Source: Escherichia coli (lineage in GTDB: Bacteria > Pseudomonadota > Gammaproteobacteria > Enterobacterales > Enterobacteriaceae). From it: 64,000 nucleotides of DNA. The position numbers were made by a program, and so were the translations under genes. Positions within the stretch are counted from its first letter, which is position 1. Each line of letters opens with the position of its first letter. The notes under the pieces are model-generated. The model made no database searches. It saw nothing but the letters and a program-made list of their open reading frames with translations, and was not told the DNA's origin. Of this stretch, positions 2,710-27,806 are shown one piece after another. The stretch lies in the NCBI RefSeq assembly GCF_030384885.1, contig NZ_CP128613.1; one strand, 5' to 3'.

Positions 2710-4389
2710 TTATTGCGGGTAAGGCACCCAGTCGCCGCCGTTCAGGCGAACGTACGGTTTATCCTGGTATTGAATAACTACTGCATTTGAGTTCTCGGAG
2801 ACCGGTGCTGTTTGTGGCAACCCACTGGTGAGTTTTTTCCAGTCAACATTGTCTTCGGTGAAAATCTTACCATCAAGAACGCGAACCACCAGATCGGAGA
2901 TAGCCAGGAAGCTGCTCGGTTGGTTGATGACAATCGGTGCCCCCTGATGTGGTGCCTTCATGCCGAAGAATTTCACCCCAACGGGGACGTCTGTGATAGA
3001 CGGGCTAGGGATATCACGTAGGCCAGATACCTGCATTCTGTCGCCCTTCAGCGCGCCACCGTGTTCCGGCACCACTACCACCATCACTTTACGACCCGAT
3101 TTCTCCAGTTCAGTAAAGAAGGCGTCCAGCTCATCAAAGAATTTCTGCGCTCGCGCTTTGTAATCCGCTGTTTTGCTGACGCCCGGATAATGGTTGCCGT
3201 CATGCAGTGGAAGCGTGTTGTAGAACGTGGCACTACGGCTGTTTTTATCTTTTTCGGTAACGTCCAGCCAGCGGTTAAGCACGGCGGTATCGTCATAAAC
3301 CGGCGAACCATCAAAGCCCAACAAAATAACCGGCAGATTTGTTTGATCCATCAATTCGGTCTGCATGCCGCCATTTTCGCGAACTTCTTTCAAAAAACCG
3401 CCGAACTGGCCGTTATGTCCCATCATCAGGTGCTGGGTAAAGCCCAGTTTCGACAGGTTATCAAACAGATAGCAGTCGTTATTTGCCGGTTGATACAGAT
3501 TAGTGTGCGAAGTCTGCCCGCAGCTGGCGCGCAGTAAACGGATCGCTGCCGGGCCACTGTAGGAGGTGGCGGAGTTAAAGTTCTTGAACTCAATATCGAA
3601 ATGCGACCACAGCGGATGCGACATCAACCCGGCGGCTTCAATATCCGACCAGGAAAGCGAACAGATATTAATCACCAGTAGTTCAAATGGCTGAGCATCA
3701 GCGGGCAGCGAAGACGGGAAGGTCGATTTACGTTTCGCCTCCGCGTTATAGAAATTATTCAGCCAGGCGTTAAGGTTCGCCGTTGTTGGCGGTGCAGTTT
3801 GTGCGGGCATATCACCCACTACCGGTGCGCCACCCGTCGCCGCAACGGTTGCCGCTGCGTTACCACCCGTCGTTGTTACAGTGGTCGTCGGTTGACCGGC
3901 AGGCCACAAGGAGAAACTTGGTCCCGCCAGGGTAAGTACGTTCAGCCATAGCAGAATGGCAACCACAAAAACGGTAATGCGAATCCATTGTGATAGGAAT
4001 AACCAGGCCACTAATAAAACAAAAATGGCCCCAATCATCTGCCAGTTAATAAAGCGTGTGACAAGGTCGATTAAATAATCGGTACTGAACCCCGCCACCT
4101 GCGAACCCTGGCTCATTATGCTTTCCGGGCCAGGCAACCAGGTGTCATGCCAGAACAAAGCAAAGCCGATCGGCAGGGCAATCCAGTGGCGTAAGCGATG
4201 CAGGCTGTAGCGCGGAATGGGCATCAGCAGAAACGCGGCAAACACCAGATTGAGGAGCGGATGGAAGTTAAGATATCCCGCCCACAACAGGCCGAACTTA
4301 ACCAGAAAATAGAAGTTCCAGCCGGAAAGGCCGCGCCAGTATTGCCAGAGGGAAGAAGGCATGGCGGTATTTTGCGTAAATTGAGTCAT
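2710..4389 (-). CDS. bcsG: Cellulose phosphoethanolamine transferase BcsG (559 aa)
   Basis: ORF track; N-terminal TM helices plus alkaline-phosphatase-like periplasmic domain; size and position (bcsEFG operon) match. Confidence 0.9.
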
Positions 4390-4577
4390 TTTTTGGTTGC
4401 CCTGGCTTTTTCCGTGCGGCGTAACGTCCCGGCCGGTTTAACATAACGAGGTTTAGCAAAGAACAAACGTAAGGTGTCGCGAATGCGTCGCAAAGAGTGC
4501 CGCGCCAGATAGCCCAGCGGGAAAAATATCAGTGCGCAAACGACAATAATTTCAATGATATCGCTGATGGTCATCAT
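4386..4577 (-). CDS. bcsF: Cellulose biosynthesis small membrane protein BcsF (63 aa)
   Basis: 63-aa ORF overlapping bcsG start by 4 nt and bcsE stop by 4 nt (translational coupling); single TM helix. Confidence 0.85.
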
Positions 4578-6145
4578 GATGAGCGCTCCACAGTATCATC
4601 TAACAGTCGCATTGGTTCTGGTATTCTTCGCCAGTGGCGACCATCGTGCTCGGCATTGATGACCGGTTTAGAACTTTGCGTTAAAGGCAGCGGCATGCCC
4701 CATTGTTCTGGAGCAAGCAGGCGCATCTGCACCAGCTCGGCACTGATTTGATCATCTTCAAACCAGACCATACGGTTTGAGAAAATGTCGCCAGTCGGCA
4801 ATGGGAAAATATGATTCAACGCGGTATCCAGATCGTTAATCCGACAGAATGAGAGAAACAGCACCAGCCGATTACCGCCAATGGTCATGATATCGCCGGT
4901 ACGGTTAGGGCGACACAGCGTCAGGGCTTGCTCAACGCGGATACCCGGTACCGGACGTAGGGCAACCAGAACGCCTTTACCATGTGCAGGCAAGAGAGGG
5001 TTATTCATCATGTTGTTAACGGCATTACAGAACACATCCCACTTCTGGAAACCACGTAGTTTGAGCGGCTGGGTCATTGACAGCAAGGTAGTGATATCTT
5101 CCGGCACATAGCGACTAAACTTCTGCCCTTGCACGCTTTCGATCATCGTCAGACAGCGGGAGAGTGGCGCATTCCACGGGATAACCATATTTGCACCGCA
5201 GGCCAATAACAAACGTTCATCGGTGGCGCGCAAGCTTGCGGTATTTTCCCGTACGAGGATTTTCATCGCACTACCGCGCTGGCGACGCAGAGTATGAATG
5301 CTGCGGGCCAGTGGCTCGATTTGCGCATTTTGCTGTAAAGAAAAGACCACCGTTGCCGCCTGAGCGGTACGGGCTTCATTGAACAGAATTTCGTTATTGT
5401 TGAACAGTTGCCAGTGTTCCGATAGCGGCGGCGCACCTTCCAGTACAGCAACATTACTCAGAATGCGTTTTTCGTCGCTGCGTGGTTGGATCTCCGCCTC
5501 TTCGCTTTGAACTAATGTCCAGATACCTTTTTGTTGCTGAACGCTAAGCTGCTGACGGGCGCTGACCCCTTTTTCGTTGCACCAGAAGGCAATATCCAGC
5601 AAATGTTGGTCGCCCTGAAAACGCAAACTGGCAAGACCAAAAAGTGAACGGTATTCCTCAAGCAACAATGAAAATTGTTTATCGTTATTATTTCCGGGAT
5701 TAATTACCAAAAGCGAACAATGGTTTAACCTGCTCCATTTATTCATTTTATCCAACCATGAGCGAAGCCGCTCGGCAGGAATGTTTTGCCATGCGTTATT
5801 TGCGCAAACAAGAATAAAAAGGTAATTATTGGGAACAATAGAACACTGCAAATCACGGGCCAAATAGTATAGACCTTTTTCATGATTTAGCATTGAAAAT
5901 AATTTTATTTTTTCCGGCCCTTGAGAATCATCTAATTGAAAGATTTTCGCCGGATCGCTGTCCATGCTAATGACCGCGACGTGTGCGGTTTCAGCCTGGG
6001 ATGCAATTGTTTGATTCGCCAGACTGATAGCATCTTCATGGCGATCGACGTTAAACCACCAGACGCCGCCTGCTGGCATATGTCGCAGCTCATCCCATAA
6101 TGATGAGATACCGATAGAGAATACAGGGTCCACAATGTCCCTCAT
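4574..6145 (-). CDS. bcsE: c-di-GMP-binding cellulose biosynthesis protein BcsE (523 aa)
   Basis: ORF track 523 aa; first gene of bcsEFG, divergent from bcsR. Confidence 0.9.
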
Positions 6146-6416
6146 GTCACCATTTTGTCTGATTATCAGTTTACTAGCGAAAGCTAAGAAATAAACCTAC
6201 CATTGAAATTAAAACTTATCAGATTTAGCATGTGAATCAATTTAGCAGGTCACAAGACGTGTGATTTTAGTCTTTTCGTTTTTAACTTTTTTTGTTGCGT
6301 AACGGAAAGTCAAAAAGTGAGCAAATTCCCGTCTCGCCGTAAACAATAAACCGGCGAAATGCTCACGGTTAGAATTGTCTCATGAACGGTGCGGTTATTT
6401 CATAGGGATCAAGCAA

Positions 6417-6605
6417 ATGAATAACAATGAACCAGATACTCTGCCTGATCCCGCGATAGGCTATATCTTCCAGAATGATATTTTGGCGTTAAAGCAGGCG
6501 TTTTCACTGCCTGATATTGATTATGCCGATATTTCCCAACGCGAACAGTTGGCCGCGGCATTAAAACGCTGGCCGTTGCTGGCAGAGTTTGCGCAACAAA
6601 AGTAG
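6417..6605 (+). CDS. bcsR: Cellulose biosynthesis protein BcsR (62 aa)
   Basis: ATG at 6417 inside track ORF 6375..6605 (MNNNEPDTLPDP...); immediately upstream of bcsQ. Confidence 0.8.
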   Translation: MNNNEPDTLPDPAIGYIFQNDILALKQAFSLPDIDYADISQREQLAAALKRWPLLAEFAQQK

Positions 6606-6616
6606 GGGATTGGTGA

Positions 6617-7369
6617 ATGGCCGTACTGGGATTGCAGGGGGTGCGGGGAGGCGTGGGAACAACAACCATCACTGCCGCATTAGCCTGGTCATTACAAATG
6701 TTGGGAGAAGATGTCCTGGTGGTCGATGCCTGCCCGGACAACTTGTTGCGCCTGTCATTTAACGTTGATTTTACCCACCGTCAGGGCTGGGCCAGAGCCA
6801 TGCTGGACGGTCAGGACTGGCGTGACGCCGGGTTGCGCTATACCTCGCAACTCGATTTGCTGCCTTTTGGTCAGTTATCCATTGAAGAACAAGAAAATCC
6901 ACAGCACTGGCAAACCCGGCTGAGCGATATTTGCTCCGGCTTACAGCAACTAAAAGCCAGCGGGCGTTACCAGTGGATTTTAATCGACTTACCGCGTGAT
7001 GCCTCGCAGATAACCCACCAGCTGCTGAGTTTGTGCGATCACTCGCTGGCAATCGTCAATGTGGATGCCAACTGCCATATCCGGCTGCATCAGCAGGCGC
7101 TGCCGGATGGCGCGCATATTTTGATTAATGACTTCCGCATTGGCAGTCAGGTTCAGGACGATATTTACCAGCTTTGGTTGCAAAGCCAGCGCCGATTACT
7201 GCCAATGCTCATTCATCGTGATGAAGCGATGGCTCAATGCCTGGCGGCTAAGCAACCAGTCGGTGAATACCGCAGTGATGCGCTGGCGGCTGAAGAGATA
7301 CTGACGCTGGCTAACTGGTGCCTGTTGAACTATTCCGGGCTGAAAACGCCAGTCGGGAGTGCATCATGA
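6617..7369 (+). CDS. bcsQ: Cellulose synthase operon protein BcsQ (ParA/MinD-like ATPase), intact 250 aa
   Basis: Full-length ORF; codon 6 is TTG (Leu), not the TAG stop found in K-12. Confidence 0.9.
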   Translation: MAVLGLQGVRGGVGTTTITAALAWSLQMLGEDVLVVDACPDNLLRLSFNVDFTHRQGWARAMLDGQDWRDAGLRYTSQLDLLPFGQLSIEEQENPQHWQTRLSDICSGLQQLKASGRYQWILIDLPRDASQITHQLLSLCDHSLAIVNVDANCHIRLHQQALPDGAHILINDFRIGSQVQDDIYQLWLQSQRRLLPMLIHRDEAMAQCLAAKQPVGEYRSDALAAEEILTLANWCLLNYSGLKTPVGSAS

Positions 7370-9984
7370 GTATCCTGACCCGGTGGTTGCTTATCCCGCC
7401 GGTCAACGCGCGGCTTATCGGGCGTTATCGCGATTATCGTCGTCACGGCGCGTCGGCTTTCAGCGCGACGCTCGGCTGTTTTTGGTTGATCCTGGCCTGG
7501 ATTTTTATTCCGCTGGAGCACCCGCGCTGGCAGCGTATTCGCGCAGAACATAAAAACCTGTATCCGCATATCAACGCCTCGCGTCCGCGTCCGCTGGACC
7601 CGGTCCGTTATCTCATTCAAACATGCTGGTTACTGATCGGTACATCGCGCAAAGAAACGCCGAAACCGCGCAGGCGGACATTTTCAGGTCTGCAGAATAT
7701 TCGTGGACGTTACCATCAATGGATGAACGAGCTGCCTGAGCGCGTTAGCCATAAAACACAGCATCTCGATGAGAAAAAAGAACTCGGCCATTTGAGCGCC
7801 GGGGCGCGGCGGTTGATCCTCGGTATCATCGTCACCTTCTCGCTGATTCTGGCGTTAATCTGCGTTACCCAGCCGTTTAACCCGCTGGCGCAGTTTATCT
7901 TCCTGATGCTGCTGTGGGGTGTAGCGCTGATCGTACGGCGGATGCCGGGGCGCTTCTCGGCGCTAATGTTGATTGTGCTGTCGCTGACCGTTTCTTGCCG
8001 TTATATCTGGTGGCGCTACACCTCTACGCTGAACTGGGACGATCCGGTCAGTCTGGTGTGCGGGCTTATACTGCTGTTCGCTGAAACGTACGCGTGGATT
8101 GTGCTGGTGCTCGGCTACTTCCAGGTGGTATGGCCGCTGAATCGTCAGCCAGTACCGTTGCCGAAAGATATGTCGCTGTGGCCGTCGGTAGATATCTTTG
8201 TCCCGACTTACAACGAAGATCTCAACGTGGTGAAAAATACGATTTACGCCTCGCTGGGTATCGACTGGCCGAAAGACAAGCTGAACATCTGGATCCTCGA
8301 TGACGGCGGCAGGGAAGAGTTTCGCCAGTTTGCACAAAACGTGGGGGTGAAATATATCGCCCGTACCACTCATGAACATGCGAAAGCAGGCAACATCAAC
8401 AATGCGCTGAAATATGCCAAAGGCGAGTTCGTGTCGATTTTCGACTGCGACCACGTGCCGACGCGCTCATTCCTGCAAATGACCATGGGCTGGTTCCTGA
8501 AAGAAAAACAGTTGGCGATGATGCAGACGCCGCACCACTTCTTCTCACCGGATCCGTTTGAACGTAACTTGGGGCGTTTTCGTAAAACGCCAAACGAAGG
8601 CACGCTGTTTTATGGTCTGGTGCAGGACGGCAATGATATGTGGGATGCCACTTTCTTCTGCGGTTCCTGTGCGGTGATTCGTCGTAAGCCGCTGGATGAG
8701 ATTGGCGGCATTGCTGTCGAAACGGTAACCGAAGATGCGCATACTTCTCTGCGTTTGCACCGTCGTGGCTACACCTCTGCATATATGCGTATTCCGCAGG
8801 CGGCGGGGCTGGCGACCGAAAGTCTGTCGGCGCATATCGGTCAGCGTATTCGCTGGGCGCGCGGGATGGTGCAAATCTTCCGTCTCGATAACCCGCTCAC
8901 CGGTAAAGGGCTGAAGTTTGCTCAGCGGCTGTGCTACGTCAACGCCATGTTCCATTTCTTGTCGGGCATTCCACGACTGATCTTTCTGACTGCGCCGCTG
9001 GCGTTCCTGCTGCTGCATGCCTACATCATCTACGCGCCTGCGTTAATGATCGCTCTGTTTGTGCTGCCGCATATGATTCACGCCAGCCTGACCAACTCGA
9101 AGATTCAGGGTAAATATCGCCACTCTTTCTGGAGCGAAATCTACGAAACGGTACTGGCGTGGTATATCGCACCACCGACGCTGGTGGCGCTGATTAACCC
9201 GCACAAAGGCAAATTTAACGTCACCGCCAAAGGTGGACTGGTGGAAGAAGAGTACGTCGACTGGGTGATCTCACGGCCCTACATTTTCCTGGTATTGCTC
9301 AACCTGGTCGGTATTGCGGTCGGTATCTGGCGTTACTTCTACGGCCCGCCAACCGAGATGCTCACTGTCATCGTCAGTATGGTGTGGGTGTTCTACAACC
9401 TGATTATTCTCGGTGGTGCGGTAGCGGTATCGGTAGAAAGCAAACAGGTTCGCCGATCGCACCGCGTGGAGATGACGATGCCCGCGGCAATTGCCCGCGA
9501 AGATGGTCACCTCTTCTCGTGTACCGTTCAGGATTTCTCCGACGGTGGTTTGGGGATCAAGATCAACGGTCAGGCACAGATTCTGGAAGGGCAGAAAGTG
9601 AATCTGTTGCTTAAACGCGGTCAGCAAGAATACGTCTTCCCGGCCCAGGTGGCGCGCGTGATGGGTAATGAAGTTGGGCTGAAATTAATGCCGCTCACCA
9701 CCCAGCAACATATCGATTTTGTGCAGTGTACGTTTGCCCGTGCGGATACATGGGCGCTCTGGCAGGACAGCTATCCGGAAGATAAGCCGCTGGAAAGTCT
9801 GCTGGATATTCTGAAGCTCGGCTTCCGTGGCTACCGCCATCTGGCGGAGTTTGCGCCTTCTTCGGTGAAGGGCATATTCCGTGTGCTGACTTCTCTGGTT
9901 TCCTGGGTTGTATCGTTTATTCCGCGCCGCCCGGCGCGGAGCGAAACGGCACAACCATCGGATCAGGCTTTGGCTCAACAATGA
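7366..9984 (+). CDS. bcsA: Cellulose synthase catalytic subunit BcsA (872 aa, GT2 + PilZ)
   Basis: ATG at 7366 (MSILTRWLL...) overlapping bcsQ stop (ATGA); GT2 motifs (DDG, DCD, QTPH, QRIRW) and C-terminal PilZ. Confidence 0.95.
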   Translation: MSILTRWLLIPPVNARLIGRYRDYRRHGASAFSATLGCFWLILAWIFIPLEHPRWQRIRAEHKNLYPHINASRPRPLDPVRYLIQTCWLLIGTSRKETPKPRRRTFSGLQNIRGRYHQWMNELPERVSHKTQHLDEKKELGHLSAGARRLILGIIVTFSLILALICVTQPFNPLAQFIFLMLLWGVALIVRRMPGRFSALMLIVLSLTVSCRYIWWRYTSTLNWDDPVSLVCGLILLFAETYAWIVLVLGYFQVVWPLNRQPVPLPKDMSLWPSVDIFVPTYNEDLNVVKNTIYASLGIDWPKDKLNIWILDDGGREEFRQFAQNVGVKYIARTTHEHAKAGNINNALKYAKGEFVSIFDCDHVPTRSFLQMTMGWFLKEKQLAMMQTPHHFFSPDPFERNLGRFRKTPNEGTLFYGLVQDGNDMWDATFFCGSCAVIRRKPLDEIGGIAVETVTEDAHTSLRLHRRGYTSAYMRIPQAAGLATESLSAHIGQRIRWARGMVQIFRLDNPLTGKGLKFAQRLCYVNAMFHFLSGIPRLIFLTAPLAFLLLHAYIIYAPALMIALFVLPHMIHASLTNSKIQGKYRHSFWSEIYETVLAWYIAPPTLVALINPHKGKFNVTAKGGLVEEEYVDWVISRPYIFLVLLNLVGIAVGIWRYFYGPPTEMLTVIVSMVWVFYNLIILGGAVAVSVESKQVRRSHRVEMTMPAAIAREDGHLFSCTVQDFSDGGLGIKINGQAQILEGQKVNLLLKRGQQEYVFPAQVARVMGNEVGLKLMPLTTQQHIDFVQCTFARADTWALWQDSYPEDKPLESLLDILKLGFRGYRHLAEFAPSSVKGIFRVLTSLVSWVVSFIPRRPARSETAQPSDQALAQQ

Positions 9985-9994
9985 TGATAACGCG

Positions 9995-12334
9995 ATGAAA
10001 AGAAAACTATTCTGGATTTGTGCAGTGGCTATGGGGATGAGTGCGTTCCCCTCTTTCATGACGCAGGCGACGCCAGCAACGCAACCACTGATCAATGCTG
10101 AGCCAGCTGTAGCCGCCCAGACGGAACAAAATCCGCAGGTGGGGCAAGTGATGCCGGGCGTGCAGGGCGCTAATGCCCCCATCGTGGCGCAGAACGGTCC
10201 TTCGCGTGATGTGAAGCTGACCTTTGCGCAAATTGCGCCACCGCCGGGCAGCATGGTGCTACGTGGCATTAACCCGAACGGCAGCATTGAGTTTGGTATG
10301 CGCAGCGATGAAGTGGTGACGAAGGCGATGCTCAACCTCGAATACACGCCATCGCCATCGTTACTGCCTGTCCAGTCGCAGTTAAAGGTTTATCTCAATG
10401 ATGAACTGATGGGCGTGCTGCCAGTGACCAAAGAACAGTTGGGTAAAAAAACGCTGGCACAAATGCCAATTAACCCACTGTTTATTACCGACTTCAACCG
10501 TGTGCGGCTGGAGTTTGTCGGTCATTATCAGGACGTGTGCGAAAACCCGGCCAGCACCACGCTTTGGCTGGATGTTGGGCGGAGCAGTGGACTGGATCTG
10601 ACCTATCAGACCCTGAATGTGAAGAATGATCTGTCACACTTCCCGGTACCATTCTTTGACCCGCGTGATAACCGCACCAACACCTTGCCGATGGTCTTTG
10701 CGGGTGCGCCGGATGTTGGGCTGCAACAAGCATCTGCCATTGTCGCCTCGTGGTTTGGTTCGCGTTCTGGCTGGCGTGGGCAGAACTTCCCGGTGCTCTA
10801 TAACCAACTGCCGGATCGCAATGCCATCGTTTTTGCCACTAATGACAAACGCCCGGACTTCCTGCGCGATCATCCGGCGGTAAAAGCCCCGGTGATTGAG
10901 ATGATCAACCATCCACAGAATCCTTACGTCAAACTGCTGGTGGTCTTTGGTCGTGACGACAAAGACCTGTTGCAGGCAGCAAAAGGTATCGCTCAGGGTA
11001 ACATTCTGTTCCGTGGTGAAAGCGTGGTAGTGAATGAAGTAAAACCGCTGCTACCGCGTAAGCCGTACGATGCGCCGAACTGGGTGCGTACCGATCGCCC
11101 GGTCACCTTTGGTGAACTAAAAACCTATGAAGAACAGTTACAATCCAGCGGTCTTGAGCCAGCAGCGATTAACGTTTCGCTAAACCTGCCGCCGGATCTC
11201 TACCTGATGCGCAGTACCGGCATTGATATGGATATCAACTATCGCTACACCATGCCGCCGGTGAAAGACAGTTCGCGGATGGATATCAGCCTGAATAACC
11301 AGTTCCTGCAATCCTTCAACCTGAGCAGTAAACAGGAGGCGAACCGCCTGCTGCTGCGTATTCCGGTATTACAAGGTTTGCTGGATGGCAAAACGGATGT
11401 CTCTATTCCGGCGCTGAAACTGGGCGCGACCAACCAGTTGCGGTTCGACTTTGAGTATATGAACCCGATGCCGGGCGGTTCGGTGGATAACTGTATTACC
11501 TTCCAGCCGGTGCAGAATCATGTGGTGATTGGTGACGACTCCACCATCGACTTCTCGAAGTATTACCACTTCATCCCGATGCCGGATCTACGCGCCTTTG
11601 CTAACGCGGGCTTCCCGTTCAGCCGGATGGCGGATCTGTCACAAACCATCACCGTGATGCCGAAAGCGCCTAACGAAGCACAGATGGAAACCTTGCTGAA
11701 TACCGTTGGCTTTATCGGTGCGCAGACGGGCTTCCCGGCGATTAACCTGACGGTGACCGATGATGGCAGCACCATTCAGGGCAAAGATGCCGACATCATG
11801 ATCATCGGTGGTATCCCGGACAAACTGAAAGACGACAAGCAGATCGACCTGTTGGTGCAGGCGACCGAAAGCTGGGTGAAAACGCCGATGCGCCAGACCC
11901 CGTTCCCCGGCATTGTGCCGGACGAGAGCGATCGCGCGGCAGAAACTCAATCAACGCTGACCTCTTCCGGTGCGATGGCAGCGGTGATTGGCTTCCAGTC
12001 GCCGTATAACGACCAGCGTAGCGTGATTGCGCTGCTGGCAGATAGCCCACGCGGTTATGAAATGCTTAACGATGCGGTGAACGATAGCGGCAAACGCGCC
12101 ACCATGTTCGGCTCGGTCGCGGTGATCCGCGAGTCCGGTATCAATAGCCTGCGTGTTGGCGACGTCTATTACGTTGGCCATCTGCCGTGGTTCGAACGCT
12201 TATGGTATGCGCTGGCAAACCATCCGATTCTGCTGGCAGTGCTGGCGGCAATCAGCGTCGTGCTGCTGGCCTGGGTACTGTGGCGTTTGCTGCGTATTAT
12301 CAGCCGTCGTCGTCTTAACCCGGATAACGAGTAA
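9995..12334 (+). CDS. bcsB: Cellulose synthase periplasmic subunit BcsB (779 aa)
   Basis: ATG at 9995 (MKRKLFWICAVAMGMSA... signal peptide) within track ORF 9908..12334. Confidence 0.9.
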   Translation: MKRKLFWICAVAMGMSAFPSFMTQATPATQPLINAEPAVAAQTEQNPQVGQVMPGVQGANAPIVAQNGPSRDVKLTFAQIAPPPGSMVLRGINPNGSIEFGMRSDEVVTKAMLNLEYTPSPSLLPVQSQLKVYLNDELMGVLPVTKEQLGKKTLAQMPINPLFITDFNRVRLEFVGHYQDVCENPASTTLWLDVGRSSGLDLTYQTLNVKNDLSHFPVPFFDPRDNRTNTLPMVFAGAPDVGLQQASAIVASWFGSRSGWRGQNFPVLYNQLPDRNAIVFATNDKRPDFLRDHPAVKAPVIEMINHPQNPYVKLLVVFGRDDKDLLQAAKGIAQGNILFRGESVVVNEVKPLLPRKPYDAPNWVRTDRPVTFGELKTYEEQLQSSGLEPAAINVSLNLPPDLYLMRSTGIDMDINYRYTMPPVKDSSRMDISLNNQFLQSFNLSSKQEANRLLLRIPVLQGLLDGKTDVSIPALKLGATNQLRFDFEYMNPMPGGSVDNCITFQPVQNHVVIGDDSTIDFSKYYHFIPMPDLRAFANAGFPFSRMADLSQTITVMPKAPNEAQMETLLNTVGFIGAQTGFPAINLTVTDDGSTIQGKDADIMIIGGIPDKLKDDKQIDLLVQATESWVKTPMRQTPFPGIVPDESDRAAETQSTLTSSGAMAAVIGFQSPYNDQRSVIALLADSPRGYEMLNDAVNDSGKRATMFGSVAVIRESGINSLRVGDVYYVGHLPWFERLWYALANHPILLAVLAAISVVLLAWVLWRLLRIISRRRLNPDNE

Positions 12335-12340
12335 TTGAAG

Positions 12341-13447
12341 ATGAATGTGTTGCGTAGTGGACTCGTGACGATGCTGCTGCTGGCTGCCTTTAGTGTTCAG
12401 GCAGCCTGCAACTGGCCTGCCTGGGAGCAGTTCAAAAAGGATTACATCAGTCAGGAAGGGCGCGTCATCGACCCCAGCGACGCGCGCAAAATCACCACCT
12501 CCGAAGGGCAAAGTTACGGCATGTTCTTTGCCCTGGCGGCTAACGACCGTGCAGCTTTCGATAATATTCTCGACTGGACGCAGAACAATCTCGCTCAGGG
12601 TTCTTTAAAAGAACATTTGCCCGCCTGGCTGTGGGGCAAGAAAGAGAACAGTAAGTGGGAAGTGCTGGACAGCAATTCGGCCTCTGATGGTGATGTCTGG
12701 ATGGCCTGGTCACTGCTGGAGGCGGGGCGTTTGTGGAAAGAGCAGCGTTATACCGACATCGGCAGCGCGTTGTTAAAACGTATTGCGCGGGAGGAAGTGG
12801 TGACGGTGCTTGGGCTGGGTTCCATGTTGTTGCCGGGCAAAGTGGGATTTGCTGAGGATAACAGCTGGCGTTTTAACCCCAGCTACCTGCCGCCGACGCT
12901 GGCGCAGTATTTCACCCGCTTTGGCGCGCCGTGGACTACGCTGCGCGAAACCAATCAACGTTTATTGCTGGAAACCGCCCCGAAAGGCTTTTCGCCAGAC
13001 TGGGTGCGCTATGAGAAAGACAAAGGCTGGCAGCTAAAAGCCGAAAAAACATTGATCAGCAGCTACGACGCTATCCGTGTTTACATGTGGGTAGGCATGA
13101 TGCCTGACAGCGATCCGCAAAAAGCGCGGATGCTCAACCGGTTTAAACCGATGGCGACATTCACCGAGAAAAACGGCTATCCGCCGGAAAAAGTCGATGT
13201 GGCTACGGGGAAAGCGCAGGGTAAAGGACCGGTCGGTTTTTCTGCCGCCATGCTGCCCTTTTTACAAAACCGCGATGCACAGGCCGTTCAGCGCCAGCGC
13301 GTGGCCGATAACTTTCCCGGCAGCGATGCCTATTACAACTATGTGCTGACCCTGTTTGGACAAGGCTGGGATCAACACCGTTTCCGCTTCTCGACAAAAG
13401 GTGAGTTATTACCTGACTGGGGCCAGGAATGCGCAAATTCACACTAA
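12341..13447 (+). CDS. bcsZ: Endo-1,4-beta-glucanase BcsZ (GH8, 368 aa)
   Basis: [21 protein letters not shown] signal peptide; GH8 family sequence; position after bcsB. Confidence 0.9.
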
Positions 13448-16400
13448 ACATATTCACGCTTTCCCTCGGTCTGGCCGTCATTCCGATGGTTGAGGCAGCA
13501 CCAACCGCTCAGCAACAGTTGCTGGAGCAAGTTCGGTTAGGCGAAGCGACCCATCGTGAAGACCTGGTGCAACAGTCGTTGTATCGGCTGGAACTTATTG
13601 ATCCGAATAACCCGGACGTCGTTGCCGCCCGTTTCCGTTCTCTGTTACGTCAGGGCGATATTGATGGCGCGCAAAAACAGCTCGATCGGCTGTCGCAGTT
13701 AGCGCCGAGTTCAAATGCGTATAAATCGTCGCGGACCACAATGTTACTTTCTACGCCGGATGGTCGTCAGGCACTGCAACAGGCAAGATTGCAGGCGACT
13801 ACCGGTCATGCAGAAGAAGCTGTGGCGAGTTACAACAAGCTGTTCAACGGTGCGCCGCCAGAAGGTGATATTGCCGTCGAGTACTGGAGTACGGTGGCGA
13901 AAATTCCGGCTCGCCGTGGCGAAGCGATTAATCAGCTAAAACGCATTAATGCGGATACGCCGGGCAATACGGGCCTGCAAAACAATCTGGCGCTATTGCT
14001 GTTTAGTAGCGATCGGCGTGATGAAGGTTTTGCTGTACTGGAGCAGATGGCGAAATCGAACGCCGGGCGCGAGGGAGCCTCTAAAATCTGGTACGGGCAG
14101 ATTAAAGACATGCCTGTCAGCGATGCCAGCGTGCAGGCGCTGAAAAAATATCTCTCTATCTTTAGCGATGGCGACAGCGTAGCTGCTGCGCAATCGCAAC
14201 TGGCAGAACAGCAAAAACAGCTGGCCGACCCTGCTTTCCGCGCTCGTGCGCAAGGTTTAGCGGCAGTGGACTCTGGCATGGCGGGTAAAGCCATTCCCGA
14301 ACTACAACAGGCAGTGCGGGCGAACCCGAAAGACAGTGAGGCACTGGGGGCGCTGGGCCAGGCGTATTCTCAGAAAGGCGATCGCGCCAATGCGGTGGCG
14401 AATCTGGAAAAAGCCCTCGCACTGGACCCGCACAGCAGCAACAACGACAAATGGAACAGTCTGCTGAAAGTAAACCGCTACTGGCTGGCGATCCAGCAGG
14501 GTGATGCCGCGCTGAAAGCCAATAATCCTGACCGGGCAGAACGCCTGTTCCAGCAGGCGCGTAACGTTGATAATACTGACAGCTATGCAGTGTTGGGGCT
14601 GGGCGATGTGGCGATGGCGCGAAAAGATTATTCCGCCGCCGAACGCTATTACCAGCAGACCTTGCGTATGGACAGCGGCAACACTAACGCCGTGCGCGGG
14701 CTGGCGAATATTTACCGCCAGCAGTCGCCAGAAAAAGCAGAAGCGTTTATCGCCTCGCTCTCTGCCAGCCAGCGGCGCAGCATTGATGATATCGAACGTA
14801 GCCTGCAAAACGATCGTCTGGCACAGCAGGCAGAGGCACTGGAAAACCAGGGCAAATGGGCGCAGGCAGCAGCACTTCAGCGGCAACGACTGGCACTGGA
14901 CCCCGGCAGTGTATGGATTACTTACCGACTTTCGCAGGATCTCTGGCAGGCCGGACAACGCAGCCAGGCTGATACATTAATGCGCAATCTGGCACAGCAG
15001 AAGCCGAACGACCCGGAGCAGGTTTACGCTTACGGGCTGTACCTCTCAGGTCACGACCAGGACAGAGCGGCACTGGCTCATATCAACAGCCTGCCGCGCG
15101 CGCAGTGGAACAGCAATATTCAGGAGCTGGTTAATCGGCTGCAAAGCGACCAGGTGCTGGAAACCGCTAATCGCCTGCGAGAAAACGGTAAAGAGGCAGA
15201 AGCAGAAGCGATGCTGCGCCAGCAACCGCCTTCCTCGCGTATTGATCTGACGCTGGCTGACTGGGCGCAACAACGACGTGATTACGCTGCTGCCCGTGCT
15301 GCATATCAGAATGTCCTGACGCGGGAGCCAACTAACGCTGATGCCATTCTTGGCCTGACGGAAGTGGATATCGCTGCCGGTGACAAAGCGGCGGCACGTA
15401 GCCAACTGGCGAAACTGCCTGCCACCGATAACGCCTCCCTGAACACACAGCGGCGCGTGGCGCTGGCGCAGGCGCAGCTTGGCGATACCGCAGCGGCGCA
15501 GCAGACATTTAACAAGCTGATCCCGCAGGCAAAATCTCAGCCACCGTCGATGGAAAGCGCGATGGTACTGCGCGACGGTGCGAAGTTTGAAGCGCAGGCG
15601 GGCGATCCAAAGCAGGCGCTGGAAACCTACAAAGACGCGATGGTCGCATCCGGTGTGACCACGACGCGTCCGCAGGATAACGACACCTTTACCCGGCTGA
15701 CCCGTAACGACGAGAAAGATGACTGGCTGAAACGCGGCGTGCGCAGCGATGCAGCGGACCTCTATCGCCAGCAGGATCTTAACGTCACCCTCGAGCACGA
15801 TTACTGGGGGTCGAGCGGCACCGGTGGTTACTCCGATCTGAAAGCGCACACCACCATGTTGCAGGTGGACGCACCGTATTCTGACGGGCGGATGTTCTTT
15901 CGCAGTGATTTCGTCAATATGAACGTCGGCAGTTTCTCCACTAATGCCGATGGCAAATGGGATGACAACTGGGGCACCTGTACATTACAGGACTGTAGCG
16001 GCAACCGCAGCCAGTCGGATTCCGGTGCCAGCGTGGCGGTCGGCTGGCGAAATGACGTCTGGAGCTGGGATATCGGCACCACGCCGATGGGCTTCAACGT
16101 GGTGGATGTGGTCGGCGGCATCAGTTACAGTGATGATATCGGGCCGCTGGGTTACACCGTTAACGCCCATCGTCGGCCCATTTCCAGTTCTTTGCTGGCC
16201 TTTGGCGGGCAAAAAGACTCCCCGAGCAATACCGGGAAAAAATGGGGTGGCGTGCGTGCTGATGGCGTAGGACTAAGCCTGAGCTACGATAAAGGTGAAG
16301 CAAACGGCGTCTGGGCATCGCTTAGCGGCGACCAGTTAACCGGTAAAAATGTTGAAGATAACTGGCGTGTGCGCTGGATGACGGGCTATTACTATAAGGT

Positions 16401-16902
16401 CATCAACCAGAACAATCGCCGCGTGACAATCGGCCTGAACAACATGATCTGGCATTACGACAAAGACCTGAGTGGGTACTCACTCGGTCAGGGCGGTTAC
16501 TACAGCCCGCAGGAATACCTGTCGTTTGCCATTCCGGTGATGTGGCGTGAGCGGACAGAAAACTGGTCGTGGGAGCTGGGGGCGTCTGGTTCGTGGTCGC
16601 ATTCGCGCACCAAAACCATGCCGCGGTATCCGCTGATGAATCTGATCCCGACTGACTGGCAGGAAGAAGCTGCGCGGCAATCCAACGATGGCGGCAGCAG
16701 TCAGGGCTTTGGCTATACGGCGCGGGCATTACTTGAGCGTCGCGTCACATCCAACTGGTTTGTCGGTACGGCAATTGATATCCAGCAGGCGAAAGATTAC
16801 GCGCCCAGCCATTTCCTGCTCTACGTACGTTATTCCGCCGCCGGATGGCAGGGTGACATGGATTTACCGCCGCAGCCGCTGATACCTTACGCCGACTGGT
16901 AA
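13429..16902 (+). CDS. bcsC: Cellulose synthase outer-membrane/TPR subunit BcsC (1157 aa)
   Basis: ORF track; signal peptide, long TPR region, C-terminal beta-barrel; overlaps bcsZ end by 19 nt. Confidence 0.95.
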
Positions 16903-22157: not shown

Positions 22158-22360
22158 TAAATCACCCGGCAGCGTTTCTTCTGCGCTGCCGGGATTAACG
22201 GTAATAAATTAGTTACCGTGATATAACCGCAGATATTTTTCCTGGCACGGCGGTAGCGCGCAGATAACCATTCATTATTAAAATAAACTTACCGTAGAGT
22301 GGGTTTAATTATTTATTAGCTGAATAAATTATACCGGTGCCTCCTGGAAGGAGTGAGTTT

Positions 22361-22786
22361 ATGCTTGTGTTAAAATCACAATCGATTGGATTCAGGATTT
22401 CCACAGCTTATTTATCTTTAACATATACAGAGTCTGATGGCGTCAAGATTAAAGTAGATGCTCTGGAGTTAATATCAACAGAGAGAGATTATGTTCAAAT
22501 TGAACTGGTCTTCACTACTGTTGCTGAAGTTAAGTGTGCTACCGTCAATTTTTATGAAGCCAACTATAACAATATTGTTATTAAGAAGGTTGATGGTGAA
22601 AATCTGGACTCCGGTATATATCAAGTAATGAATTCTGTACCGCTTGAAGAAAAAGAGAAATTATATGATCCTAAAAAACGGTTGAAGTTAAAACATTATA
22701 TTATAGCAGGTTATGATAGTTATGTTGAGATTTTAGCTACTGGTTTTAGCTGTATACGATGCCAGGCAATAGATGGTGTTAAATAA
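22361..22786 (+). CDS. Hypothetical protein (141 aa), AT-rich accessory ORF 1
   Basis: ATG at 22361 preceded by ggaaggagtg RBS (track ORF 22337..22786); low GC; no recognised family. Confidence 0.5.
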   Translation: MLVLKSQSIGFRISTAYLSLTYTESDGVKIKVDALELISTERDYVQIELVFTTVAEVKCATVNFYEANYNNIVIKKVDGENLDSGIYQVMNSVPLEEKEKLYDPKKRLKLKHYIIAGYDSYVEILATGFSCIRCQAIDGVK

Positions 22787-23040
22787 TGGCCTATCATATA
22801 GAAATATTGAAAATTGAAGAAACTGATAAAGTAGTAAAATATGAATTTGGACCTACATCTTCTGACTATTGTAGATCTGATTACGGCGAATTCGTGATAG
22901 ATAAAAGAACGGGTGAGATGACATTAGTCAGAATGGTTAAAAACGATTCAGCTAATAAATTTTATTTGCGAGCGAGTTTTAAGATTCTGACCTGTTGGCG
23001 AAAGGGCTATTTGCCAAAAAATGAGGAATGGGCTTCTTAA
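22786..23040 (+). CDS. Hypothetical protein (84 aa), AT-rich accessory ORF 2
   Basis: ATG overlaps stop of ORF 1 (TAATG), suggesting translational coupling. Confidence 0.45.
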   Translation: MAYHIEILKIEETDKVVKYEFGPTSSDYCRSDYGEFVIDKRTGEMTLVRMVKNDSANKFYLRASFKILTCWRKGYLPKNEEWAS

Positions 23041-23139
23041 TAAGTAACTTTGCAGAATAAGTGAATTTTCCCATTTTTTTGGGGGCAGTCGTTGATTCTT
23101 ACACAGTTTATGTTATGGGTGCCAAATTTAGGATAGGCT

Positions 23140-23619
23140 ATGGATTTTCACTTGGATATTTTGCTCCCTACACAATTCGCTCCAGAGGAACTAGATCTAC
23201 AAGAGGTTATGATTCACTGGGGTGGGGAAACCTTTCATCGCGACCCTCCGGTATACGCCTGGTGTAATCATCATCTTTTGCAGAGATGCAATCTACCGAT
23301 TACTTATGGCCCACCTTTAGATGAGCACATAGACTTTAATGAATATCATGTTTACAACTTCAATGGTTCTTTAGTCGATGACCTGGAAATGGCTGTGAAT
23401 AAAGGAAAGGATATTTCAACCAATCCTATAATTAAATTTATTAACAACCTGGTTAGCAAAAATTACGGGGGGTGGGTAATCTTGTCATTAGATGATGAAA
23501 AAATAGAAGTGATTAAAAATATAAGCTTCCAGTATTCTTTTCTATCATTATTAGTTGATGGACTAAAATGGGAAAGACCGCATGGGGTGGCAATATTATA
23601 TAATTCACACTTAATTTAA
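23140..23619 (+). CDS. Hypothetical protein (159 aa), AT-rich accessory ORF 3
   Basis: ORF track; low GC; no recognised family. Confidence 0.45.
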   Translation: MDFHLDILLPTQFAPEELDLQEVMIHWGGETFHRDPPVYAWCNHHLLQRCNLPITYGPPLDEHIDFNEYHVYNFNGSLVDDLEMAVNKGKDISTNPIIKFINNLVSKNYGGWVILSLDDEKIEVIKNISFQYSFLSLLVDGLKWERPHGVAILYNSHLI

Positions 23620-23640
23620 TTAATTAATGAATGGAAACAT

Positions 23641-23943
23641 ATGTATCGTGTAAAGGTTGTTTGGCTTACAGAAAATGAAGGTGGCAGAAGGAGCGCACCT
23701 CCTATCGGTAGATATTATCCCGTCTCCAGGTTTCCAGAGGAGAAAACTGACTGGCAAAATAATGCATGGAGTGTTGTTTTTGAATTGGAAAAACCTAATG
23801 TAACCGATGGACGTATCGTTTCAATGGGGTGCGTTCAGTTCCTTTTCGATACCGCCCCTGAACAATGGATGACTAAGTACGAGGCATTTGAGATCTACGA
23901 AGGACCAAGAAAAGTCGCAGATGTATTATTGATAGGGAATTAA
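23641..23943 (+). CDS. Hypothetical protein (100 aa), AT-rich accessory ORF 4
   Basis: ORF track; 21 nt after ORF 3; low GC. Confidence 0.45.
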   Translation: MYRVKVVWLTENEGGRRSAPPIGRYYPVSRFPEEKTDWQNNAWSVVFELEKPNVTDGRIVSMGCVQFLFDTAPEQWMTKYEAFEIYEGPRKVADVLLIGN

Positions 23944-24004
23944 TTTTATTTATGTCAGGCTATTTAATTATATTTGCGACCTCAACGCATTTTCAGGAGT
24001 ATAA

Positions 24005-24538
24005 ATGCGTAACAAAAAACGCATACTATTCTTGCTAACAGTCATTTTTTGCTTAACAGGTCTTTATTCCTGCAACAAAAATTTTCTCTTACTCTGGGAT
24101 GCCAATAATATGTATGTCAGCACAAGAAATAATATCGATAAAGACAAGGTAAAAATAGAATTCGGTATCAGCGTCAACACGATCAACCGAGAAACGGATG
24201 CCGAATTATTTGCTGACAGAGATAAGTATGCAGTGCTCTTCGATGGTAGCCTGAAAAATAAGATGATAAGCGAATACGGAGAAAATGATTTTTTAATTAC
24301 CTACGATAACCGCTGCTATTTATCATTTCGTCAATTTAAAACAAATCGTCGTCATCAACATGACTATTATTTTGACTTCTTTAACAAGGATGGGAATGTC
24401 TTCGTCACGGTCGAAATTAAAGGTGAGAACCCGCTTAAATTTACGCGTAGTTTTAATGATATGCGTCAGCAGTTTTCACCATTCCGTAAGGGTAGCCCTT
24501 CTCACTCCTGCAAGGTTATTTCTTCAGATCCTTCTTAA
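24005..24538 (+). CDS. Hypothetical exported protein, possible lipoprotein (177 aa), AT-rich accessory ORF 5
   Basis: N-terminal signal peptide MRNKKRILFLLTVIFCLTGLYSC with Cys after hydrophobic core; ggagt RBS upstream; 3' end overlaps convergent gene by 23 nt. Confidence 0.5.
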   Translation: MRNKKRILFLLTVIFCLTGLYSCNKNFLLLWDANNMYVSTRNNIDKDKVKIEFGISVNTINRETDAELFADRDKYAVLFDGSLKNKMISEYGENDFLITYDNRCYLSFRQFKTNRRHQHDYYFDFFNKDGNVFVTVEIKGENPLKFTRSFNDMRQQFSPFRKGSPSHSCKVISSDPS

Positions 24539-26510: not shown

Positions 26511-27705
26511 TGAACTCTCCTTGTAAATTTGGGGTGCATCGCGCCCATCCCAGCGCACTGCTTTCACCAGCACGCAACTGCCTGGTACTGATGCGAATAA
26601 AACGTAACGAGGATGCGTTGGTTTGTGCCTGATAATGGCCTGCGCCATCAGCATATGTGCATTGAGCAGCAGGCAGCTCGATCTGTTGTGGCAATGGCGC
26701 GTCAATATCACCATTGTTTTTAATGGCCAAATCAATAAGTTGCTTGTCAGCCTGTGGCGAAATTATCAAAGACCAGCGCGGCGTCAAAGGTTTATGGTGA
26801 ATAACGGCATCTAAAGTAGACAGGGACCAGGCGCGGCGATCATTTGCCAGCGGGAGTCGGAACCAGATAAATCCCTGTAACCCTGAGGGCGGTTTTTGTT
26901 CCAGCTGTTGGGTAAAATCAGCCAACGTTTGTGGCGCCACACTCAGCTCCCGCAACTCTTGTGCAATATACAGTGGGGCTTCGCTTTCAATACGGTTATC
27001 GCGCGTCAGCGCAGAACCGTAAGCCGGCAGAGCGATGTAAAAAGGATGGGGAGAAATACGTGCATATTGCGTGCTCCAGCGCTTAGCCAGTTTACTGTCG
27101 AATAATCCCTGTTGCGGCGATAACACCGTATGCACCTGCAAAACAGAAATATCGGCGTCAGCCAGCAGCGCAGGCAGATGTGGTGAATTCAGCCAGTCAG
27201 GTAATGCAGTAATACTGAGTTTTAATTCTGCAGGAAGATTCTGGCGCAATGTCCTTAGCAACTGTTGGTATTCCACCAGTTTTGCCGTTGGCGCATCGAA
27301 ATCAATTTCAATGCCAGCCAGCTTAATACCCGCCTCTTTCCACTCATTCATTGTTCGTACAATGTTCTGCACAACATTTTGTTGATTAATATGAGAGAGC
27401 TTACCGTCCAGTCGCGCAACCAGCCAGACGGGGCGATCATCTTGTTTTATAAATGTTTTATTAACGGCGGTGTAGCGTATACCTTCCTGAGGATGAACTT
27501 GTAGCTCCAGAATGCGTAGCGTTGAGAACAGATTACGGCTCTGTTTTAGTGCGTGCTCATGTTGCGCGGTCCACAAACGCTGCCAGATATAGACTTGTTG
27601 ATCGAGGGGGCGTGTTTTTTGCGGCATAAGCCGGGTCAGCAGCCCATATCCAGAGCCGATAAAAACGATGAGTGAAATGGCAAAAATCCATTTGCGAGAG
27701 GGCAT
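26497..27705 (-). CDS. Membrane-anchored periplasmic protein of unknown function (402 aa)
   Basis: ORF track; single N-terminal TM helix (WIFAISLIVFIGSGYGLL) then soluble domain; first gene of two-gene operon. Confidence 0.6.
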   Translation of the reverse strand: MPSRKWIFAISLIVFIGSGYGLLTRLMPQKTRPLDQQVYIWQRLWTAQHEHALKQSRNLFSTLRILELQVHPQEGIRYTAVNKTFIKQDDRPVWLVARLDGKLSHINQQNVVQNIVRTMNEWKEAGIKLAGIEIDFDAPTAKLVEYQQLLRTLRQNLPAELKLSITALPDWLNSPHLPALLADADISVLQVHTVLSPQQGLFDSKLAKRWSTQYARISPHPFYIALPAYGSALTRDNRIESEAPLYIAQELRELSVAPQTLADFTQQLEQKPPSGLQGFIWFRLPLANDRRAWSLSTLDAVIHHKPLTPRWSLIISPQADKQLIDLAIKNNGDIDAPLPQQIELPAAQCTYADGAGHYQAQTNASSLRFIRISTRQLRAGESSALGWARCTPNLQGEFNVIP

Positions 27706-27789: not shown

Positions 27790-27806
27790 TATGATTGATG
27801 TGTTAT

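Follow-up and report, generated by a model that had tools for sequence, protein, structure and literature searches.

Overlapping gene junctions in the divergent bcsRQABZC and bcsEFG operons of Escherichia coli are real, previously annotated and conserved in related bacteria

Short overlaps between neighboring genes are a textbook signature of operons. Genome-wide in E. coli, and in all prokaryotes, the commonest intergenic distance is −4 nt; short distances are enriched 4.5-fold for genes of heteromeric complexes, and reinitiation drops by 40 to 80% at a distance of +14 nt (PMC10666635). Of five native overlapping pairs tested in E. coli, four showed strict coupling (PMC6728339). The coupled pairs of Huber et al. 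(2019, 2023) are co-directional, lie at −4, have a Shine-Dalgarno (SD) sequence within the upstream gene and encode subunits of heteromeric complexes; such an internal SD is usual in E. coli without being essential. For bcsABCD of acetic-acid bacteria, coupled translation is an old proposal (review, PMC8964354); apart from this Acetobacter proposal, a literature search for coupling specific to bcs or for control of bcsB by small RNAs gave nothing relevant. The distantly related, plasmid-borne bcsO-bcsABCD cluster (e.g., pDX6A) also contains overlaps, with distances of −4 for bcsA/bcsB (with a GGAGG SD), −4 for bcsB/bcsC and −1 for bcsC/bcsD.

We analyzed a 64,000-nt stretch of E. coli DNA (the window) carrying a bcs locus of the E. 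coli type (type II). It shares with that type the nine genes, their order, the divergent arrangement and the protein lengths, and we found no structural difference. Annotation, full-length translations and Protein Data Bank (PDB) matches place bcsA and bcsB side by side with bcsZ and bcsC downstream; bcsR and bcsQ lie upstream of bcsA, and the bcsEFG operon is divergent. The genes were located by RefSeq mapping, supplemented by translation for bcsG and bcsB:

Positions 2710 to 4389, minus strand: bcsG, phosphoethanolamine transferase, 559 aa
Positions 4386 to 4577, minus strand: bcsF, single-pass membrane peptide, 63 aa
Positions 4574 to 6145, minus strand: bcsE as annotated, 523 aa
Positions 6417 to 6605, plus strand: bcsR, 62 aa
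Positions 6617 to 7369, plus strand: bcsQ, intact, 250 aa
Positions 7366 to 9984, plus strand: bcsA, catalytic synthase, 872 aa
Positions 9995 to 12334, plus strand: bcsB, periplasmic crown subunit, 779 aa
Positions 12341 to 13447, plus strand: bcsZ, endoglucanase, 368 aa
Positions 13429 to 16902, plus strand: bcsC, outer-membrane porin with a TPR scaffold, 1157 aa

All nine models are the same as in the RefSeq/PGAP annotation of an E. coli chromosome of 99.5% identity, a comparison that the sequence-only reading of this DNA had put forward as a check on its gene starts. None of the nine translations contains an internal stop, and the region has 95 to 99% identity with almost every complete E. 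coli genome. The proteins match chains of the solved Bcs macrocomplex in the PDB: the 9fmv_A alignment covers BcsA residues 1 to 872, 9b8v_B and 9fmv_B align from BcsG residue 1 onward, and 9fnn_F is the identical 63-aa BcsF chain. A further PDB chain, 9b8a_A, begins at BcsC residue 21, past the predicted signal peptide. Whereas bcsQ of K-12 has TAG at codon 6 through a single-nucleotide change (PMC5944007), bcsQ of the window has TTG there (6632 to 6634) and is intact, so that its junction with bcsA, unlike that of K-12, is functional.

Three of the junctions are 4-nt ATGA overlaps, read directly in the sequence:

Positions 4574 to 4577, minus strand: bcsE stop and bcsF start (bcsF ATG, 4577 to 4575; bcsE TGA, 4576 to 4574)
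Positions 4386 to 4389, minus strand: bcsF stop and bcsG start
Positions 7366 to 7369, plus strand: bcsQ stop and bcsA start

The sequence-only reading had described these three overlaps correctly, together with the 19-nt overlap of bcsZ and bcsC (bcsC ATG at 13429, bcsZ TAA at 13445 to 13447) and the start of bcsB (ATG at 9995) 10 nt after bcsA (stop at 9982 to 9984). Two further junctions, absent from that account, are gaps of 11 nt (bcsR/bcsQ) and 6 nt (bcsB/bcsZ, after the TAA of bcsB). The supplement of Huber et al. (2023), in which a bcsABZC transcription unit has an entry, gives the same distances for K-12 (−4, −4, +10, +6 and −19); bcsQ/bcsA is absent from its K-12 table because bcsQ is a pseudogene in that strain. 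With the coordinates in RefSeq and the distances in this published table, the junctions were already known, and the finding in its original form contributes nothing beyond this.

Overlaps were found in 4 of the 7 co-directional bcs pairs versus 2 of 25 in the neighboring region (Fisher P = 0.012), and gaps of 12 nt or less in 7 of 7 versus 4 of 25 (P = 1e-4), the 25 comparison pairs coming from a closely related strain, whose annotated neighboring region is not fully collinear with the window. The bcs gaps leave no room for both a terminator and a promoter. This packing is the ordinary pattern of genes inside operons.

All nine bcs genes were present in 75 to 82 related loci, and we compared the junctions across approximately 75 to 80 species of Enterobacteriaceae, in which BcsA was 75 to 98% identical. 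The bcsE/bcsF distance was −4 in 69 of 75 species and −1 in 4; bcsQ/bcsA was −4 in 73 of 79; and bcsZ/bcsC was −19 in 70 of 75. The bcsF/bcsG overlap was −8 in 49 of 75 species, −4 in 23 and −11 in 3, with a gap in none. The nonoverlapping junctions were at +10 (bcsA/bcsB, 61 of 80 species) and +6 (bcsB/bcsZ, 59 of 76). Where an overlap had changed, it had become another overlap (−1, −8, −11 or −14) and almost never a gap. The junction overlaps are real, previously annotated and conserved in related bacteria; within a single family, such conservation could in part be phylogenetic inertia.

Overlaps of this kind might instead be neutral by-products of genome compaction without a role in expression, since any ATG followed by A already holds a TGA and a lost or displaced stop codon tends to give way to ATGA. 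The poorly conserved C-terminal tails of BcsE, BcsF, BcsQ and BcsA just before the junctions agree with this, as do the toggling of bcsF/bcsG among −4, −8 and −11 through frame changes in the BcsF tail and the prevalence of −4 in all prokaryotes. Against it, the bcsE/bcsF, bcsF/bcsG and bcsQ/bcsA junctions virtually never opened to a positive gap (a single +2 among 75 to 79 species) despite highly diverged flanks, SD-like motifs were retained inside the upstream genes, and experiments have shown coupling at comparable pairs in E. coli. We consider a purely neutral origin unlikely.

Some of the signals around the junctions are consistent with translational coupling. SD-like motifs precede bcsF, bcsQ and bcsA, with anti-SD ΔG values of −5.6 to −7.1 kcal/mol. 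The bcsF motif (GGAG, 4589 to 4586, 8 nt upstream of the ATG; −5.6) lies in the 3′ end of the upstream gene, as does that of bcsA (GGGAG, 7355 to 7359, 6 nt before the ATG and inside bcsQ). The bcsA start region was also the most structured of the nine (minimum free energy, −18.7 kcal/mol; mean P(unpaired), 0.28). SD sequences in the upstream gene were weak for bcsG (AGGG alone, 10 nt upstream; −3.4) and bcsZ, the bcsC SD was badly spaced, and bcsB had none. The distances of bcsE/bcsF, bcsF/bcsG and bcsQ/bcsA (−4), bcsB/bcsZ (+6) and bcsA/bcsB (+10) fall within the coupling range of about −8 to +10 nt, with bcsZ/bcsC (−19) and bcsR/bcsQ (+11) outside it. The locus resembles the cases of Huber et al. 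in being co-directional, in its −4 distances, in the upstream SD sequences of bcsF and bcsA and in encoding subunits of a heteromeric complex, but differs in that bcsG lacks a good SD and the subunit ratios are unequal. The −19 bcsZ/bcsC junction and the SD-less +10 bcsA/bcsB junction lie outside those well-characterized cases.

This is the ordinary architecture of two divergent operons, bcsRQABZC and bcsEFG, and its anatomy, its match to the annotation and its conservation are shown here. We infer, as the likely reading, that termination-reinitiation takes place at the ATGA junctions, a model that the conserved junction geometry fits. A ribosome ending at bcsE/bcsF, bcsF/bcsG or bcsQ/bcsA would most likely reinitiate on the spot, aided at bcsF and bcsA by the internal SD sequence, and translation of the upstream gene would open local mRNA structure. 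Each operon would thereby be translated in a coordinated, gap-free manner rather than with a fixed 1:1 output. At bcsR/bcsQ, bcsA/bcsB and bcsB/bcsZ, initiation is likely to be independent or mixed. The 19-nt overlap is beyond the range of known efficient reinitiation: at bcsZ/bcsC a reinitiating ribosome must reach back 16 to 19 nt, so that unwinding by upstream ribosomes combined with de novo initiation may serve there. Cellulose production is lost through premature stops in bcsQ (K-12) and in bcsE (ATCC 8739), both of which have been suggested to act in a polar manner on the genes downstream (PMC5944007). In an overexpression construct, the result of a stop after BcsE residue 217 was consistent with that of a deletion keeping the bcsF ribosome-binding site (PMC7439463); bcsF need not, then, depend strictly on bcsE translation.

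The proposed polar effects, in both operons, also bear on the idea that the main benefit is transcriptional, with gap-free ribosome cover of long operons blocking Rho-dependent premature termination instead of tuning ratios. The bcsRQABZC operon is about 10.5 kb long and no gap at any of the seven bcs junctions exceeds 11 nt; according to Zouhir et al., the bcs operons contain putative terminators and BcsE binds S10/NusE, which suggests that antitermination matters here. Protection from polarity does not, however, require exact ATGA overlaps, and the idea goes together with translational coupling instead of competing with it. As the main explanation we regard it as improbable.

The sequence-only reading had gone further, proposing that the dense packing supports stoichiometric co-translation of the synthase complex. 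Coupling itself is plausible, given the SD-like motifs, the structured bcsA start, the conserved overlaps and the four of five literature pairs, but the stoichiometric part fails. The cryo-EM macrocomplex is BcsR2Q2A1B6E2F2G3, giving ratios of 2:1 for Q:A, 2:3 for F:G and 1:6 for A:B, and BcsZ and BcsC, whose genes share the longest overlap, are not subunits of it (PMC11470070). BcsE and BcsF are the only equimolar pair across an overlap; BcsR and BcsQ are 1:1, but their genes do not overlap. Overlapping neighbors thus do not have equal copy numbers, and the published composition is not the expected product of simple coupling. With subunit numbers so unequal, dense packing is not readable as a stoichiometry device, and the overlaps alone do not set the ratios. 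Because BcsB is required at an approximately sixfold excess over BcsA, coupling alone would be insufficient for BcsB.

The SD-less bcsB start is predicted to lack structure, and its nucleotide sequence is unusually well conserved. By sequence reading, conservation, anti-SD ΔG and folding we delimited the following region:

Positions 9971 to 10024, plus strand: conserved SD-less bcsB translation-initiation region

Within it lie the bcsA end, a TGA TGA TAA run of in-frame stops (9982 to 9990), the 10-nt spacer (9985 to 9994), the bcsB ATG and A-rich first codons, with the stretches GGCTCAACAATGATGA and AAAAGAAAA. An out-of-frame mini-ORF of 5 codons (9981 to 9998; ATG ATG ATA ACG CGA TGA) shares an ATGA with the bcsA stop at its beginning and another with the bcsB start at its end. 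Mean pairwise identity was 0.87 at positions −24 to −1, and third codon positions scored 0.79 in codons 2 to 11 versus 0.41 in codons 12 to 100. A search for a bcsB SD gave an anti-SD duplex of +0.5 kcal/mol for the window, equal to the median over 82 loci. Pairing of UGAU to a GAUCA stretch of 16S rRNA was, by eye, too weak and badly spaced, and RNAalifold on 54 sequences found essentially no conserved RNA structure at bcsA/bcsB (−0.5 kcal/mol). In pDX6A-type clusters, by contrast, a strong SD precedes bcsB, which overlaps bcsA; the chromosomal type II junction has a 10-nt spacer and no SD.

Tentatively, and with less than even probability, the enterobacterial type II bcsA-bcsB junction could be a dedicated, sequence-specific translation-initiation element of about 45 to 55 nt, GGCUCAACAAUGAUGA-N7-AUGAAAAGAAAAC..., conserved across the family at synonymous and noncoding positions. 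Its mode of action might be that of an S1- or A-rich-dependent entry site, of a site bound by a factor or small RNA, or of a 5-codon relay ORF. If real, it could uncouple BcsB synthesis from that of BcsA, permitting the 6:1 crown. How the sixfold excess of BcsB arises from an SD-less, highly conserved start is one of two issues raised by this locus, the other being the real start codon of bcsE; both are set in a well-studied biofilm system.

The overlaps had also been taken as independent confirmation of the chosen starts. They are no such proof, because of the TGA inherent in any ATG followed by A. Apart from that of bcsE, the bcs starts are supported instead by RefSeq agreement, by conservation of the ATG position (73 to 80 of approximately 75 to 80 species; 80 of 80 for bcsB), by upstream in-frame stops and by the signal-peptide-like N termini of BcsB (MKRKLFWICAVAMGMSAFPSFMTQA), BcsZ and BcsC. 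The same evidence bears on whether the overlaps are artifacts of start codon choice, with true starts downstream and genes that do not overlap. A second bcsF ATG lies 3 nt downstream, and the bcsE start, which is at no junction, looks misplaced by 12 nt. In 18 species, however, bcsF has only the overlapping ATG, the basic n-regions of the BcsC and BcsB signal peptides require these starts, in-frame stops lie 15 to 21 nt upstream of bcsC and bcsF, and PDB entries carry the same sequences. Together with the ATG conservation, this leaves an artifact very improbable.

Candidate upstream starts were also considered. GTG 7318 for bcsA is not conserved, 22 of 81 species having an in-frame stop no more than 30 nt from the ATG; TTG 9908 (bcsB) and TTG 6375 (bcsR) are likewise not conserved, in-frame stops intervening in many species. 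The in-frame stop 15 nt upstream of the bcsC ATG leaves no alternative upstream start for that gene. For bcsZ, which is in the same frame as bcsB, TTG 12335 could be an alternative start.

The first gene of its operon, bcsE, has a doubtful start that lies at no junction. Only 9 of 75 species have a start codon at the position of its annotated codon 1, and 74 of 75 have GTG or ATG at codon 5. In the window codon 5 is a GTG (6133 to 6131, minus strand) 12 nt downstream of the annotated ATG and preceded by GAGGG at 6143 to 6139, and it looks to be the conserved start.

At the gathering threshold, Rfam gave no RNA family between 2.5 and 43 kb; its only matches elsewhere in the window were rdlD, GadY, ES205 and AgrB. 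The sole match in a 5.6-kb island at 22 to 28 kb, scanned with NCBIfam, Pfam and PADLOC, was DUF3142. In the ldr region, where Tandem Repeats Finder reported none, a separate repeat search found a duplication.

Between nucleotides 4000 and 14000, the window is 99.5% identical to E. coli strain EC42405 and 95 to 99% identical to almost all of the 5,426 complete E. coli genomes. Gene models were obtained by mapping the RefSeq/PGAP annotation of the EC42405 record onto the window, which placed the cellulose-synthesis genes as follows:

bcsG, 2710-4389, minus strand
bcsF, 4386-4577, minus strand
bcsE, 4574-6145, minus strand
bcsR, 6417-6605, plus strand
bcsQ, 6617-7369, plus strand
bcsA, 7366-9984, plus strand
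bcsB, 9995-12334, plus strand
bcsZ, 12341-13447, plus strand
bcsC, 13429-16902, plus strand

All nine translations begin with ATG and lack internal stops. bcsQ is intact, with TTG at codon 6; TAG at this codon causes the cellulose-negative state of K-12 (PMC5944007). We then compared the junctions with those of 80 Enterobacteriaceae loci found in a BcsA scan of one genome per species (BcsA identity, 75 to 98%). Each Bcs protein was located by tblastn and extended to its stop, and the start codon closest to the homologous position was taken as its start.

Junctions read directly in the window, and distances among the Enterobacteriaceae loci (minus, overlap in nucleotides; plus, gap)
bcsE/bcsF, minus strand: ATGA 4577-4574; −4 in 69/75, −1 in 4, −14 in 1, +2 in 1
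bcsF/bcsG, minus strand: ATGA 4389-4386; −8 in 49/75, −4 in 23 (Escherichia, Citrobacter, Raoultella and others), −11 in 3
bcsR/bcsQ, plus strand: +11; +11 in 39/77, the rest mostly +9 to +18
bcsQ/bcsA, plus strand: ATGA 7366-7369; −4 in 73/79
bcsA/bcsB, plus strand: stop 9982-9984, start 9995, 10-nt spacer; +10 in 61/80, +13 in 12
bcsB/bcsZ, plus strand: +6; +6 in 59/76
bcsZ/bcsC, plus strand: ATG 13429, TAA 13445-13447, 19-nt overlap; −19 in 70/75

The sequence-only reading had given all of these window distances except those of bcsR/bcsQ and bcsB/bcsZ; every figure was correct by direct reading, and comparison with the annotated RefSeq starts gave identical junctions. In their supplement, Huber et al. 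2023 tabulate the distances −19, +6, +10, −4, and −4 for K-12, where bcsQ is a pseudogene and the bcsQ/bcsA distance is missing for that reason alone. The observation is thus confirmed and was already on record. The packing is correct and conserved, yet ordinary and previously documented. The commonest single distance genome-wide in E. coli is −4, and 24% of 2,987 unidirectional pairs lie at −8 to +6 and 7% at +9 to +12 (PMC10666635). As a control, we took 25 other co-directional pairs from the EC42405 annotation of the neighbouring region, where that strain and the window are not fully collinear. Overlaps were found in 4/7 bcs pairs versus 2/25 controls (Fisher p = 0.012), and spacings of 12 nt or less in 7/7 versus 4/25 (Fisher p = 1e-4). 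Since many control pairs span different operons, the test mostly shows that the bcs genes belong to tight operons.

Directly 5' of the bcsE/bcsF and bcsQ/bcsA junctions, conservation is poor (per-column pairwise identity of about 0.2 to 0.5). Overlaps that had changed in the compared loci became other overlaps, not gaps (the single +2 bcsE/bcsF locus apart). Such changes amid poorly conserved flanks argue for constraint on junction geometry within the one family compared. bcsB and bcsZ share a reading frame (12332-12343, plus strand), separated only by TAA and the two codons TTG AAG, so that the TTG at 12335, directly 3' of the bcsB stop, is a possible alternative bcsZ start.

The overlaps had also been said to confirm the gene starts independently. 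Most starts are indeed well supported, but by other evidence. For bcsQ, bcsA, bcsB, and bcsC, ATG occupies the homologous position in 73 to 80 of about 75 to 80 species, and in the window sequence bcsF, bcsG, bcsQ, and bcsC have no in-frame alternative start upstream. Upstream candidates for bcsA (GTG 7318) and bcsB (TTG 9908) were unsupported by other species. The N-termini of BcsB, BcsZ, and BcsC appear to carry basic residues, a hydrophobic stretch, and an Ala-rich cleavage-like site. PDB entries for the Bcs macrocomplex have the same sequences from residue 1, and a full-length BcsC construct begins at residue 21.

The starts were not equally secure, however, and that of bcsE is in doubt. 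Its annotated ATG (6145-6143) is preceded only by GGTGA, 1 nt upstream (predicted anti-Shine-Dalgarno duplex energy, −2.8 kcal/mol), and the position is a start codon in just 9/75 species, being AAG, ACG, GCG, CAA, CCG, or even TAG elsewhere. Codon 5 (GTG, 6133-6131, minus strand) is GTG or ATG in 74/75 species, and AGGGA/AGGA (GAGGG/AGGA) is conserved 5 nt before it. GTG 6133, which lies 12 nt downstream of the annotated ATG, is therefore probably the conserved start, giving 519 amino acids. A three-codon open reading frame, ATG GTG ACA TGA (6153-6142, minus strand), ends in an ATGA shared with the annotated ATG.

The dense packing had further been taken to support stoichiometric co-translation. 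Coupling itself is plausible. Shine-Dalgarno-like sequences lie inside the upstream gene 8 nt before bcsF (GGAG, −5.6 kcal/mol) and 6 nt before bcsA (GGGAG, −6.9 kcal/mol); weak ones precede bcsG (−3.4 kcal/mol) and bcsZ (−3.3 kcal/mol), and bcsC has an AGGA that directly abuts its ATG. Of the nine start regions, that of bcsA is predicted to be the most structured (MFE of −18.7 kcal/mol from −30 to +30; mean probability unpaired, 0.28). A study of native E. coli overlapping pairs, four of five of which proved strictly coupled, proposed that such structure prevents de novo initiation and enforces coupling (PMC6728339). Reinitiation falls by 40 to 80% at +14 nt (PMC10666635). Cellulose is no longer made with nonsense alleles of bcsQ (K-12) or bcsE (ATCC 8739), for which polarity on downstream genes has been proposed (PMC5944007). 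An overexpression experiment suggests that bcsF does not strictly depend on bcsE translation (PMC7439463). We consider it likely that bcsE/bcsF, bcsF/bcsG, and bcsQ/bcsA would be coupled through termination-reinitiation and that initiation at bcsR/bcsQ, bcsA/bcsB, and bcsB/bcsZ would be independent or mixed.

The stoichiometric part fails against the cryo-EM composition, BcsR2Q2A1B6E2F2G3 (PMC11470070). Across overlaps, this gives E:F of 1:1, F:G of 2:3, and Q:A of 2:1; A:B is 1:6 across a 10-nt gap, an unexpected ratio remarked on earlier (PMC7840130), and R:Q is 1:1 without overlap. The longest overlap joins BcsZ and BcsC, both outside the macrocomplex. Under coupling, each termination on the upstream gene can lead to no more than one initiation on the next, which cannot account for the excess of G over F or the large excess of B over A. 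Overlaps are 4.5-fold enriched among complex subunits in E. coli (PMC10666635), which makes "coordinated expression of a complex" a fair description, but not "stoichiometric co-translation".

Only the conserved bcsB translation initiation region (9971-10024, plus strand), in which no Shine-Dalgarno sequence was found (+0.5 kcal/mol, both in the window and as the median of 82 loci), offers a mildly novel lead. No other bcs junction has so conserved a stretch: this one is nearly invariant in about 74 species and lies directly downstream of hypervariable BcsA tail coding sequence. Mean pairwise identity at −24 to −1 is 0.87 for bcsB versus 0.41 to 0.77 for the other genes, and third-position identity is 0.79 in codons 2 to 11 versus 0.41 in codons 12 to 100. 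The core reads GGCTCAACAATGATGA, then about 7 variable nucleotides, then ATGAAAAGAAAAC. It holds in-frame tandem stops, TGA TGA TAA (9982-9990), and an out-of-frame five-codon open reading frame (9981-9998) that shares one ATGA with the bcsA stop at its beginning and another with the bcsB start at its end; from the tandem stops alone, ATGs arise automatically. The motif is kept where bcsA reads it in another frame, overlapping bcsB by 4 nt (Mangrovibacter, loci L076, L078, and L080), where the bcsA stop lies 25 to 26 nt earlier (loci L029 and L032), and in the +13 genera, as TAATGATGA. No conserved RNA structure was predicted at this junction. Unlike this chromosomal start, the bcsA/bcsB junction of a distant plasmid-borne cluster has GGAGG and ATGA. 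The pattern suggests nucleotide-level selection on a Shine-Dalgarno-independent entry site for BcsB, which would be interesting given the 6:1 requirement; any mechanism is speculative.

A second, plasmid-borne bcs cluster is common in E. coli, with BcsB matches in 185 plasmid records (60 to 80% identity in 128). The cluster on pHFQ1 is flanked by IS elements and has a group II intron maturase gene between bcsB and bcsC, and pDX6A carries a bcsO-bcsABCD-type cluster with junctions of −4, −4, and −1.

Elsewhere in the window, a 5.6-kb island (22159-27805) between yhjJ and kdgK is absent from EC42405; of the 5,426 complete genomes, only 2 have it in full length and 200 have part of it. The island carries a gene for a DUF3142 protein (26497-27705, minus strand), an open reading frame of up to 739 amino acids with a weak TPR match (24516-26735, minus strand), and three small open reading frames without family or defence-system matches; annotations of relatives include a TriTu-family immunity protein. 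EC42405 has a 9-kb chu/shu heme-uptake locus that is absent here (~52834-52874), placing the window in a chuA-negative lineage, and 55910-57564 has no match in EC42405. At 1824-2606 there is a duplication of the ldr/rdlD type I toxin-antitoxin module: the two copies each span at least 300 nt, are 95% identical, and are spaced by 483 nt, with rdlD Rfam matches at 1919-1984 and 2402-2467. EC42405 carries five Ldr genes there. Rfam also matched known small RNAs:

GadY, 43112-43225
ES205, 49004-49075
AgrB, two adjacent copies by dinQ, 59909-60226
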